Below, one piece after another: positions 57,411-59,136 of a stretch of 64,000 nt of DNA. Origin of the DNA: an uncultured Acidobacteriota bacterium. Lineage in GTDB: Bacteria; Acidobacteriota; Thermoanaerobaculia; UBA5066. The translations under genes and the position numbers were made by a program. Every line of letters begins with the position of its first letter. Position 1 is the stretch's first letter. The notes beneath the pieces were generated by a model, which saw nothing but the letters and a program-made list of their open reading frames with translations, did no database searches and was not told where the DNA came from. The DNA lies in contig CAVZYA010000002.1 in the NCBI GenBank assembly GCA_963779415.1, forward strand, positions 1,216,001 to 1,280,000. The letters are read 5' to 3'.

Positions 57411-58435
57411 GGGGTCAGGTCTGCTAAATTGCGGTTCACGACACCTCTGCAAGGAGGGCCTCCAGACTCTTTCGGAAGGCCGCTTCCTTCTCCGCGAGCT
57501 GCTCGGCCGCTGTCGCCATGTGCGAGGCCGACCAGGACCTGACGCCGAGGAACGCCCCGATCGCTTCCAGCGGGAGCGCCGCTTCCCTGCGGGCTGCAGA
57601 GCGACAGCCAGGCGAACAGGACCGCCGCGCTTTCTTCGAACATCGCCCGGAGGGACGGCGAAGATGCGGGCCGCCGCGTCCGCGATCGTTTCGAGGCTGG
57701 GCCTGCGCAGTAACCGCTGTCGGCGGGGAATCTCCGGGAGCGTCTGCCGCCCGTCCATCCAGCGTTCGGCCTTCCCGACAAACTCGTCGCCGCCAAGGAG
57801 GATCTGGTGGGTGAGGGTCTGCCACGGGGCATACCCGGATCGAAGTCCGTCGGAAACGAACTCCCGATAGCGTCCCTCAGCCAGAGCCCTTCGGGAAGCG
57901 AAGAGGGAGAGGACGCCGTCTGTATCGAGCCATTCGGAGGCGGATTCGTGGCCGGCGGTGGCGCGGTAGCTGCTCCACCGCCAGTTACGCGCTGAGCGGG
58001 CCGCCCCCGCCCGGACGGGGTTGAGGACGACGTAGCGACACAGCTCCAGCAGGTGGGCCTCCTTCTCCACGAGGATCCCCTTGAAGCGCCCCTGCATCAG
58101 GTGACCGGAGCGGCCATGCCGCCGGTTGAATCGCTGGGTGTAGATGCCGTTGAGCTGGCGCATGCCGCGCGAGAGGTTCGGCTCAGGTGTCTCGAGAAGC
58201 AGGTGATAGTGGTTGTTCATCAGGACCCATGCATAGAGCCGCCAGTGGAACATCGCGACCGCGCGCCCGAGGATCTCGAGAAACAGCTCGCGGTCGGGGT
58301 CGTCCCGGAAGATCTCCCGACGCTCGTTGCCTCGGCTCGTGACATGCCACAGGGCACCGGGGTGTTCAAGGCGCAGGGGGCGAGACATCAAACGCTCCTG
58401 CGGCGAATTCTATCGCAATTTAGCAGACCTGACCC
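57411..58435 (-). mobile_element. HUH tyrosine-transposase unit bounded by perfect 22-bp inverted repeats
   Basis: GGGTCAGGTCTGCTAAATTGCG (57412-57433) and CGCAATTTAGCAGACCTGACCC (58414-58435). Confidence 0.85.
57436..58388 (-). CDS. REP-associated/TnpA-Y1 HUH tyrosine transposase with C-terminal HTH-like extension (frameshift near 57600)
   Basis: MSRPLR..PGALWHVTSRGNER, LMNNHYHLL (HUH), GHLMQGRFK, YVVLNPVRAG, WSSY; tail LEAIGAFLGVRSWSASH. Confidence 0.9.
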
Positions 58436-58462
58436 TCAGCCCTCCTCGAGCCCAACCCTCCT

Positions 58463-58700
58463 TTCGTCTGGAGCAAGCCGTCGGCATAGTACGCGGTACG
58501 TTTCCGTCGCCCCGTCGGGGAAGACGGTCTTCTGAAGCCGCTTCAGGGCGTCGTACTGATAGCTCGTGACGTTGCCGTTGGGGTCGGTGATGGAGGTGAG
58601 GAGATCGTTGGTCCACGCGTAGAGGGTCGTGCCGCCGGCGGCGTCGAGTGATTTCCGGAGCCTCCCCATCTGTCGTAGCCGAGGTTCGTGATCTTGCCGT
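58463..58700 (-). pseudogene. Internal Rhs/YD-core fragment
   Basis: Aligns by eye with 61528-61765; LLTSITDPNGNVTSYQYDALKRLQKTVFPDGATETY. Confidence 0.9.
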
Positions 58701-58777
58701 AGACCGGCAGGAGAGAAACCGCAAAAAAACGCGGAGTCGAACCGCAATTTAGAGGACCTGACCCTCAGCCCTCTCGA

Positions 58778-58874
58778 TCGTCCTCATCCTGAAAAATGTC
58801 CGGCGCTCATTGCCCCGGCTCGTGAGGTGCCAGAGGGCGCCCGGGTGTTCGAGACGCAGGGGGCGGAACATCAA
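58778..58874 (-). pseudogene. Truncated, diverged 5' copy of the HUH transposase gene
   Basis: Reads MFRPLRLEHPGALWHLTSRGNER; matches 58295-58391, and the adjacent leader to 58896 is also conserved. Confidence 0.85.
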
Positions 58875-59136
58875 GCGCTGCTGAGGCGGATTCTATCGCA
58901 ATTTGGCAGACCTGACCCCAAACCTCCGTGACCCCAAACCTCCGTTCGTCGATCCCGAGCGGCGCCTGCCCGTCCTTCTACCGAAAGCCGCGTAGGCGGC
59001 GTCGAATCCGTCGAGCCGTCCATTCCAGACGCGATCGAGGTGTGCGCGAGGTCCATACCTCTCACCCTCGATCAGAACCTCTGCCCCGGCCGCCGGCCCC
59101 CGCAGTTTCCATTGCGCCCCTACACCCTTTGCAAGC

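Follow-up and report, generated by a model that had tools for sequence, protein, structure and literature searches.

The transposase locus in our window (the whole 64,000-nt stretch of DNA analysed, from an uncultured Acidobacteriota bacterium) is a TIRtron, that is, a member of an already named class of bacterial element. With a probability that we put at roughly 0.85, the array of repeat-delimited fragments upstream of this TIRtron was built by serial local re-copying and rearrangement of its tip, and the vicinity of an Rhs gene is incidental. As a catalogue entry the locus is of little weight, TIRtrons having been named since 2013, and its remaining value is mechanistic because no bench study of a TIRYT, the transposase of these elements, was found in the literature searched. 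The unit (element A) measures 1,025 bp, from 57411 to 58435, and contains one gene for a TIRYT, a RAYT-like Y1/HUH nuclease/ligase of single-stranded DNA, between two non-palindromic terminal inverted repeats:

57374..57411, forward strand: decayed re-copied flank outside the 3′ repeat (GGGGTCC, GGGGTCA and GAGCACGG twice, leading into the tip), read directly
57411..57433, forward strand: 3′ terminal inverted repeat of A with tip GGGGTCAGG and outer end at 57411, from repeat search and comparison with a same-genus genome (G007) and metagenome contigs
57436..58388, reverse strand: TIRYT gene (RAYT-like Y1/HUH nuclease with a C-terminal helical HTH-like domain), from profiles, translation and paralogue alignment
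58389..58413, reverse strand: putative 5′ leader with a -10-like TAGAAT (58407-58412) at the inner edge of the repeat, AGGAG (58395-58399) and ATG at 58388, by reading
58414..58435, reverse strand: 5′ terminal inverted repeat of A, from repeat search; the G007 homology block ends exactly at 58435
58436..58465, reverse strand: outer flank of A, two decayed units (AGGAGGGTTGGGCTCG / AGGAGGGCTGA plus GGGTCA), from alignment

The perfect 22-bp inverted repeats that the initial annotation placed around the transposase are indeed there: GGGTCAGGTCTGCTAAATTGCG lies at 57412-57433 on the forward strand and at 58414-58435 on the reverse strand without a single mismatch, 980 nt separating the two arms. 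It recurs on the reverse strand at 58743-58764 (two mismatches) and 58897-58918 (one mismatch), giving four matches against 0.00 expected from 100 shuffles. The repeat effectively begins one base further outward, as GGGGTCAGG from 57411, and carries the tag GGGGTCAG (57411-57418, complement at 58428-58435), which fits the published GGGGWSAS. Neither a GTAG tag nor hairpin folding was found, none of eight repeats folding better than its shuffles (z from -0.70 to +1.46), in line with the initial statement that these are not GTAG-type hairpins. Both short tandem duplications reported outside the outer copies are also present, one being GAGCACGG at 57396-57403 and 57405-57412, where a period-9 repeat was detected at the 3′ repeat head of A, and the other being the perfect duplication of TGACCCCAAACCTCCG (58913-58928 and 58929-58944) at the far end of the array.

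The open reading frame at 57357-58391 (reverse strand) matches Pfam Y1_Tnp (E = 2e-10), as do 3/3 paralogues and 28/28 aligned relatives. Scores with the NCBIfam model for REP-associated tyrosine transposases (REP_Tyr_transpos, NF047646; cut-off 80 bits) are 85.5-85.7 bits, 85.5 for the window copy, whereas the IS200 model NF033573 yields 13.8-17.3 bits against a cut-off of 55. The HUH motif (HYH) and the tyrosine of a WSSY motif are present in the window TIRYT and invariant among the four paralogues. The best PDB match by sequence is 4er8, the Escherichia coli TnpA_REP (E = 6e-4), which also leads the fold matches (Foldseek E = 7.6e-7, TMt 0.72), with the transposases of ISDra2 and IS608 next; these profile and structure matches agree with the earlier assignment to the RAYT branch of HUH/Y1 enzymes. 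The AlphaFold model (mean pLDDT 87.5) has a separate and confident helical domain at residues 232-316, for which Pfam helix-turn-helix matches in the family are weak and all below the curated cut-offs (Bac_DnaA_C and HTH_31 in 2/28 proteins each; HTH_23, AbiEi_4 and Sigma70_r4 in 1/28 each). Three-frame translation places the C-terminal part of the window protein in another frame, behind a frame shift near 57597; with a correct assembly, this copy would therefore be translated without its HTH-like domain. One contig of metagenome run X1 has one extra base behind 57597.

The genome-wide search for the repeat proposed at the outset recovered about 40-45 copies and four diverged full-length TIRYT paralogues, all of them between their own inverted GGGTCAGG repeats, the sequence types of which recur as solo copies. 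By tblastn the genome holds four long TIRYT matches and two short fragments, and by eye we saw a further stump at C1:1172414. The paralogues share 57-73% protein identity and are therefore no recent copies; three are open frames of 316-320 amino acids and the window copy is frame-shifted. Of the window 22-mer there are 8 genome copies with up to three mismatches, the 10-mer of the repeat occurs 58 times against 0-36 for ten scrambled 10-mers, and a stricter pattern retains 45 repeat heads, a few of them probably false, which are intergenic in 41/45 cases by a crude ORF call. Direct repeat dimers are spaced 29-50 nt. Beyond this genome, an inverted repeat surrounds the gene in 54/69 related loci with full flanks, 51 of these 54 having the tag; GGGTCA[AG]G lies within 250 nt upstream of the gene in 67/80 related loci, and the tag precedes relatives in both Acidobacteriota and Proteobacteria. 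The same-genus genome G007 matches the window exactly over 57411-58435 (79% identity) with unrelated flanks. Metagenome contigs from four runs, 90-99% alike, limit the cover of the element to 57410-58446 and have three different flanks at 57410, contigs of three runs diverging from the window just before 57410/57411. Such alignments show the repeat-to-repeat unit to be what other genomes have in common. Some relatives' elements sit at breaks in synteny with this genome.

Inverted ends, a single gene filling the unit, several copies in the genome and the same unit in different contexts could also describe an ordinary insertion sequence, moved by double-strand cut-and-paste, with target duplications and classical IS ends. 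We regard this as scarcely credible, since the sole gene encodes an HUH/Y1 enzyme, not a DDE or serine one, no direct repeats flank element A or the paralogue at C2:1647063-1648082, and the paralogues have diverged as described above. When flanks of related loci were blasted against the genome, no simple filled/empty pair of sites emerged, and hence no empty site by which the inserted unit could be delimited independently.

The -10-like hexamer at the inner end of the 5′ repeat raises another reading, in which the repeats would be chiefly regulatory, serving as the gene's promoter or operator and as movable promoters bound by the C-terminal HTH-like domain, and would not be cutting substrates. 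TAGAAT in the window has counterparts in three paralogues and several relatives (TATACT, TATGCT or TATAGT, 6-7 nt before the start, as in leaderless genes). A consensus promoter scan made no call at this site in A, however, so that its leader and promoter are assigned by inference. The same repeat moreover stands inverted behind the stop codon in 4/4 paralogues, solo copies have no preferred orientation (18 beside a co-oriented start and 20 beside a convergent stop, by a crude ORF caller), and HUH and tyrosine are invariant among the four paralogues. A chiefly regulatory function is thus unlikely, although regulatory and cutting-substrate roles of the repeats are mutually compatible.

In the array, the same element tip, each time with homologous flank, occurs three times in direct orientation, as the complete element A, as a stump of about 35 codons (B) and as a tip of about 35 nt (C):

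58463..58700, reverse strand: Rhs-core fragment with one internal frame break, from profile match and nucleotide and protein alignment
58719..58746, reverse strand: two overlapping terminator-like hairpins with a T run, just inside copy C, from a hairpin scan (weak)
58743..58764, reverse strand: repeat copy C, two mismatches, chimeric tip, from repeat search and alignment
58771..58896, reverse strand: stump of a second element B, with the leader and about the first 35 codons of a TIRYT gene, from tblastn, blastn and alignment
58897..58918, reverse strand: 5′ repeat of stump B, one mismatch, from repeat search
58913..58944, forward strand: a 16-nt unit, made up of 9-10 nt of flank and the GGGGTCA tip, present twice as a perfect tandem re-copy, from repeat search
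59936..64000, reverse strand: neighbouring Rhs gene (DUF6531 and RHS repeats) in at least four ORFs in different frames, outside the element, from profile match

The two further direct copies described initially, at 58743 and 58897, thus do delimit an Rhs-core fragment and a transposase 5′ fragment, and alignment finds the flanks of A, B and C homologous. The extra outer flank attributed to the copies at 58414 and 58743 extends over 31 nt at 94% identity (36 nt at 91.7%). Copy C also carries, flipped, the inner flank of the far-end repeat, as previously noted (26 nt at 92%, including the inner GGTTC), and so combines an outer flank like the 5′ end of A with an inner flank like its 3′ end. Stump B stops within 6 nt of the outer end of copy C; its sequence matches TIRYT residues 1-29 at 86% by tblastn, locus L087 matches 58771-58921 at 79% by blastn, and 58800-58918, being 86% like 58317-58435, represents a second 5′ end of the element. 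The 16-nt re-copy beside B (period 16 on the minus strand) has its right boundary at 0, that is, directly after TCA on the element strand, and the decayed outer-flank units of A are homologous to it by alignment. The terminator-like hairpins near C are a weak call because two were found against 1.5 expected in shuffles. Neither a tRNA nor a known RNA was found within 54000-64000 / 55000-60500; GGTTCGACTCC inside copy C does not belong to a tRNA.

Because the genome was assembled from a metagenome, the stretch 58436-58944 might be an artefact of collapsed or chimeric repeats. Probable single-base indels occur in the TIRYT gene, in the Rhs gene, which reads as at least four ORFs, and in a Beta_elim_lyase gene that finishes in a different frame. 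In a search of public runs, which contained at most 0.14 of the sampled words, cover was nil over 58701-58943 and limited to one run, in a single bin, over 58539-58619; contigs of four runs span the element, not the array. The tips nevertheless differ from one another (0, 1 and 2 mismatches; a gene stump at 86%; a decayed versus a perfect flank duplication), unlike the product of collapse or chimerism of identical repeats, and many assemblies made independently contain clusters and re-copied tips of a similar kind, making an assembly artefact improbable.

A diverged Rhs piece is trapped between C and A. The initial proposal was that a domesticated HUH enzyme captures or shuffles DNA at GGGTCAGGTC sites and may diversify the adjoining Rhs toxin/immunity region. 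In favour of this proposal, two repeat copies with a common outer flank do enclose an Rhs-core piece, the chimeric copy C implies an inversion or template switch between two repeats, and the re-copying of tip plus flank is real and enriched (see below). The piece itself (58436-58747, reverse strand, matching RHS_repeat) speaks against such a function: 58463-58700 is 85% identical in nucleotides to 61528-61765 of the main Rhs gene and 76% identical in amino acids to residues 350-415 of the ORF 60858-62783, so that it is no recent copy of the adjoining gene, and it derives from the middle of the core, not the toxin end, and has a broken frame. Tblastn with the Rhs core at 95 loci gave a match in the window's own DNA (L086) and in 0/94 others, most of which are loci of TIRYT genes including some 1.5 kb to either side, so that none of these others showed a link with Rhs. 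The only match elsewhere in the genome is one 59-residue piece about 2 kb from one repeat, and the some 40 other repeat copies are mostly found in the gaps between ordinary genes. The position of the element beside an Rhs toxin gene therefore looks like chance, and diversification of that region by the enzyme is very unlikely. What stands of the proposed shuffling is that tip DNA is locally re-copied and rearranged; a role in Rhs diversification found no support.

Short re-copies of flank plus repeat tip are present at 15/45 repeat heads in the genome and at 34/156 in loci L006-L085, against background rates of 0.34% and 0.77% (20,000 random positions each) and 4/1,481 at other GGGTCA sites; they are enriched 30-100 times, family-wide. 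Their periods are mostly 14-18 nt, and the right boundary falls exactly after TCA in 10/15 cases in the genome and 11/34 in loci L006-L085, the remaining 28/49 ranging from -3 to +40. These re-copies may mark the cut site of the TIRYT. With four paralogues, about 40 repeats and many re-copies with a preferred breakpoint, the genome is a compact natural data set from which a candidate cleavage site, GGGGTCA|GG, and candidate substrates can be read. If true, this site would show how an HUH single-strand nuclease acts on non-hairpin, inverted-repeat ends and how such elements scar and rearrange nearby DNA. A bolder reading, possible but on balance doubtful, is that the re-copies, arising independently at both ends and present in several phyla, are scars left in vivo where a TIRYT nicked and wrongly rejoined DNA at the tip CA, and that this reaction, acting over longer stretches, produced the array of three tips and trapped foreign (Rhs) DNA; the re-copies would then reveal the cleavage site of this enzyme class and make TIRYTs active restructurers of adjoining DNA. 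Two other explanations of the tip were rejected. Against GGGGTCA as target DNA, with insertion into a GGGGTCA/TGACCCC palindrome, neither GGGTCATGACCC nor GGGTCA-N0-6-TGACCC occurs even once in the genome; pairing of the flank with the inner repeat, as a hairpin round the tip, is seen by eye in some copies (L085, L051 and the window), not in most.

Because the literature searched contained no TIRYT biochemistry, and that from 2018 on added nothing on mechanism, we infer the cutting, its position and the mechanism of mobility from the genomic data. The C-terminal domain would seat the TIRYT on the repeat, and the HUH/tyrosine centre would nick the repeat tip on one strand, the commonest position being behind the CA of GGGGTCA, with the nicked 5′ end staying on the tyrosine. 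Joining to a wrong 3′-OH, or repair synthesis at the nick, would produce re-copied tips, and the same chemistry could move or copy single repeats as well as the entire unit. The array would have arisen as the element tip, with from a few to about 46 nt of flank, was re-copied and rearranged in successive local rounds. Solo repeats show no bias with respect to the replication strand (about 17 leading and 19 lagging in a hand tally against GC skew, with clusters non-independent), so that an IS608-like mechanism acting on single-stranded DNA of the lagging strand gains no support. A literature text search for the motif string gave, among the matches listed, only unrelated primer-type ones.

Compared with known systems, the element shares the HUH/Y1 fold and the lack of target duplication with IS200/IS605 elements (IS608, ISDra2), the ends of which are subterminal hairpins without inverted repeats; those of the window element are inverted repeats without hairpins, and its protein stays below the cut-off of the IS200 model. 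The resemblance to REPtrons is closer, with a homologous catalytic domain, a gene bracketed by inverted copies of a genome-scattered repeat, one repeat type per enzyme and clusters re-iterated with bits of flank. The window repeats, however, are neither hairpins nor tagged with GTAG or CGTC, the protein is extended by an HTH-like domain, and there are four paralogues instead of a single copy and tens of repeats instead of hundreds, RAYTs being typically described as present in one copy per genome (Bertels et al. 2017). TnpA_REP is reported to cut single-stranded DNA at CT or CA beside the repeat (Corneloup et al. 2021, PMC8266576), and the boundary behind the CA in GGGGTCA agrees with this. 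In the text of Quentin, Siguier, Chandler and Fichant (2018, BMC Genomics 19:475, PMC6006769), TnpA-Y1 subclass 2.1 is equated with TIRYTs. Its members are described there as long, with a Y1/HUH core that is followed at the C-terminus by an extension similar to Bac_DnaA_C, HTH_23 or HTH_28, with a serine motif beside the catalytic tyrosine and with no REP in the vicinity; the window TIRYT, placed here by that description, has such a core, no REP close by and WSSY as its serine motif, and at the place of the extension the modelled helical domain, which is out of frame in the window copy. The class itself was named by Di Nocera, De Gregorio and Rocco (2013, BMC Genomics 14:522, PMC3733652), whose main text describes TIRtrons as RAYT-like tyrosine transposase genes between long, non-REP terminal inverted repeats with GGGGWSAS, the repeats forming moderately abundant families, often as dimers or clusters, and several TIRYT genes with different repeats co-existing in one genome, including that of the acidobacterium Koribacter versatilis. 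The word "duplication" is absent from that main text, which thus seems to give no account of re-copies of flank plus tip that end preferentially behind GGGGTCA. The initial interpretation was right about the enzyme branch and the non-hairpin repeats but missed this named class: a RAYT-like Y1 protein with HUH and tyrosine, non-REP inverted repeats, GGGGWSAS and dispersed copies were all found here, and from TIRtrons as that text presents them the window element differs in nothing essential.

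Four copies of the 22-mer GGGTCAGGTCTGCTAAATTGCG stand in the window, against an expectation of zero in shuffles, and the accompanying features described in the initial annotation were all found in the sequence: both small tandem duplications, the outer flank common to copies 58414 and 58743, and the inner flank of 58743, which is of the 3' type.

Copies of the 22-mer in the window
57412, plus strand: copy with 0 mismatches
58414, minus strand: copy with 0 mismatches
58743, minus strand: copy with 2 mismatches
58897, minus strand: copy with 1 mismatch

Copies 57412 and 58414 enclose a minus-strand ORF that matches Pfam Y1_Tnp and, above the curated cut-off, the NCBIfam family "REP-associated tyrosine transposase"; together with the HUH motif, present as HYH, and a tyrosine within WSSY, the Y1_Tnp match bears out the proposed HUH type of the enzyme. 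The gene reads like its paralogues for ~265 residues and then continues in another frame, in which the true C-terminus ends at TGA 57436, 2 nt from the repeat. A contig from one metagenome run, 97-99% like the element, has one extra base behind 57597, with which the C-terminus would be in frame again. The neighbouring Rhs gene (59936..64000, minus strand) is split into at least four ORFs, and, at 52997-55831, a long ORF contains two Beta_elim_lyase stretches with a profile match stopping at position 265 of 288, its expected C-terminus being found in another frame (55431-55667); this frame break and the split Rhs gene suggest single-base indels in the assembly. Given these broken neighbours and the extra base, the frame shift of the transposase gene may be either a real pseudogene or an assembly indel. 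Adjoining the element, a small minus-strand ORF (57030-57323) with no match in the Pfam search has a hydrophobic stretch near its end followed by RSRRK, which we take to resemble a PEP-CTERM-type sorting tail.

RAYT-like genes between long inverted repeats unrelated to REPs have already been named, the units as TIRtrons and their enzymes as TIRYTs (Di Nocera et al. 2013, PMC3733652); according to that paper, the repeats have the motif GGGGWSAS in common and form moderately abundant families in dimers or clusters, and the acidobacterium Koribacter versatilis carries three genes for TIRYTs. TIRYTs are assigned mostly to TnpA-Y1 subclass 2.1, with a C-terminal HTH-like extension (Quentin et al. 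2018, PMC6006769). GGGGTCAG of the window's element conforms to GGGGWSAS, and by its sequence the element is a TIRtron. A tblastn search of its genome found four long TIRYT paralogues (57-73% protein identity among themselves) and two short fragments. Each long paralogue is enclosed by inverted copies of a ~28-nt repeat that opens with GGGGTCAGG and is otherwise paralogue-specific, and the three outside the window are open frames of 316-320 codons filling the entire inter-repeat space. An intact paralogue was modelled with confidence by AlphaFold (mean pLDDT 87.5), as an alpha/beta domain at the N-terminus and, set apart from it, a helical domain (232-316). By fold the model is matched best by E. 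coli TnpA_REP (4er8), also the sole match in a sequence search of the PDB, and next best by the ISDra2 and IS608 transposases; weak HTH-family matches (Bac_DnaA_C, HTH_23, HTH_31, AbiEi_4, Sigma70_r4) occur in a few of 28 relatives.

The 10-mer GGGTCAGGTC has 58 copies in the genome, versus 0-36 for ten scrambled 10-mers. A stricter pattern gave 45 repeat heads, a few of them probably false, of which 41 are intergenic by a crude ORF call; the window's 22-mer subtype has eight genome copies. None of eight repeats tested had hairpin potential beyond shuffles, and the genome's copies displayed neither replication-strand bias (hand tally against GC skew) nor promoter-like orientation bias. There was no palindromic empty target in the genome, no empty site when the flanks of related loci were compared with it, and no tRNA or Rfam match around the element. 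In this genome (G000:C2:1647063, C1:1391505 and C2:1690833) and at related loci L006-L009, L016 and L023, the 5' repeat closes on its inner side with a -10-like hexamer (TATACT, TATGCT, TATTCT or TATAGT), and the start codon follows after 6-7 nt; since this is the layout expected for a leaderless mRNA, the repeat may also serve as promoter of the TIRYT gene. At 55668-55715, immediately past the stop codon that closes the ORF of the lyase C-terminus, a degenerate pair (GGTCCAGGGCC, then AT-rich ...TTTCTATAATTG, next GGGTCAGGTCC lacking the AT-rich part) has the look of a decayed dimer from the element's repeat family. Another small dispersed repeat may be represented by a ~35-40 nt stretch at 59095-59134, with the array on one side and, on the other, the ORFs that lie downstream of the Rhs gene; it has 88-91% matches on several relatives' contigs (five in G010, one in G004).

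Scanning one genome per species yielded 285 encoded relatives, of which the best 80 loci were examined; these come from MAGs labelled Acidobacteriota (Thermoanaerobaculia, Holophagales), Beta-/Gammaproteobacteria, Nitrospiraceae and others. GGGTCA[AG]G lies at most 250 nt upstream of the gene in 67 of these 80, and an inverted repeat surrounds the gene in 54 of 69 loci with full flanks, 51 of the 54 carrying the tag. A copy in a genome of the same genus aligns to 57411-58435 at 79%, exactly tip to tip and with unrelated flanks, and contigs from four metagenome runs (soil or sediment; not taken as the assembly's source), 90-99% like the element, span 57410-58446 with three different flanks just before 57410/57411, which indicates that the unit running from repeat to repeat is what different contexts share. 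One run has a direct repeat dimer at the element's other end; on inspection of the window, no direct repeat flanks the complete element. For the elements at L008/L088 (G003), L016, L089 (G017) and L095 (G008), the two flanks find their matches in the window's genome 10 kb to 215 kb from each other or in reversed relative orientation, so that those relatives' elements sit at synteny breaks; the G003 element has its right flank in common with a region 1.4 kb beyond paralogue C2:1690789-1691839.

Repeat tips are frequently re-copied together with their flanks. Each repeat head was checked for a tandem repeat spanning flank and tip; in this genome 15 of 45 heads have such a re-copy, and in the 80 related loci 34 of 156. 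By comparison, the rate is 0.34% and 0.77%, respectively, among 20,000 random positions apiece, and of 1,481 GGGTCA sites standing in another context 4 have one. The period is in most cases 14-18 nt. The right boundary falls exactly after TCA, between GGGGTCA and GG, in 10/15 and 11/34 cases, and elsewhere from -3 to +40. The flank part varies from copy to copy and between both ends of one element, and in one metagenome copy, where its flank is a different one, the window's element shows a re-copy of its own; these differences indicate that re-copies arise in place. Arrays reach seven units at a Paraglaciecola (L085, ~700-930) and a Chromatiales locus (L051, minus strand, ~1790-1900), where five to seven units begin with the same flank word and end 7, 13-15 or 20-21 nt into the repeat, the left boundary being fixed and the right one variable. 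A larger version is the 115-nt tandem duplication at C3:301640 and 301755 (8 nt of flank, the repeat and ~45 nt beyond).

The window's own array appears to have the same origin. On the minus strand, tips A (58414-35), C (58743-64) and B (58897-918) have in common the repeat and a homologous outer flank: that of B contains the perfect duplication CGGAGGTTTGGGGTCA x2, that of A a decayed version of these two units, and that of C the last 13-14 nt as in A. This homology rules out three independent insertions and points to one tip that was copied serially together with its flank, some of the copies being old, in line with the local rearrangement at repeats initially proposed. The transposase 5' fragment of the annotation corresponds to the leader and ~first 35 codons of a second, diverged gene copy (58771-58918) that is 86% like A and breaks off at most 6 nt from C's outer end. 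Tip C carries the inner flank of A's 3' end, as expected if the two inverted repeats recombined or a copying enzyme switched from one to the other.

The Rhs-core fragment noted between repeat copies is present at 58463-58700, between C and A; it has 85% identity to the stretch 61528-61765 within the neighbouring Rhs gene, and its last Rhs-like bases abut A's re-copied flank. A role of the enzyme in Rhs diversification was not borne out: by tblastn, the Rhs core matched only the window's own DNA among 95 loci and, in the genome, only the window's locus and a 59-residue piece (C1:1747926-1748099) in an ORF without Pfam match; a repeat copy situated after a PQQ_2 gene lies ~2 kb away. The genes flanking the element had no match in 30 relatives, which marks the region as variable; we conclude that the element's place beside the Rhs gene is due to chance, or to the tolerance of such regions for insertions. 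The original observation is thus confirmed and its interpretation partly supported, for enzyme type and local rearrangement and not for Rhs diversification.

The only wider interest lies in the re-copied tips, which offer a testable cut site for a class without biochemistry in the literature searched: our search found no functional study of any TIRYT, the term being confined to PMC3733652 and PMC6006769, and the word "duplication" is absent from the text, figures aside, of the former. In its inverted-repeat-flanked RAYT-like gene, GGGGWSAS tag, several paralogues and clusters, the system is like the TIRtrons of Di Nocera et al. (2013). TnpA_REP enzymes are described as cutting beside the REP, at a CT or CA dinucleotide (PMC8266576), and a TIRYT cut after the CA of GGGGTCA, as we would predict, would fit these sites.
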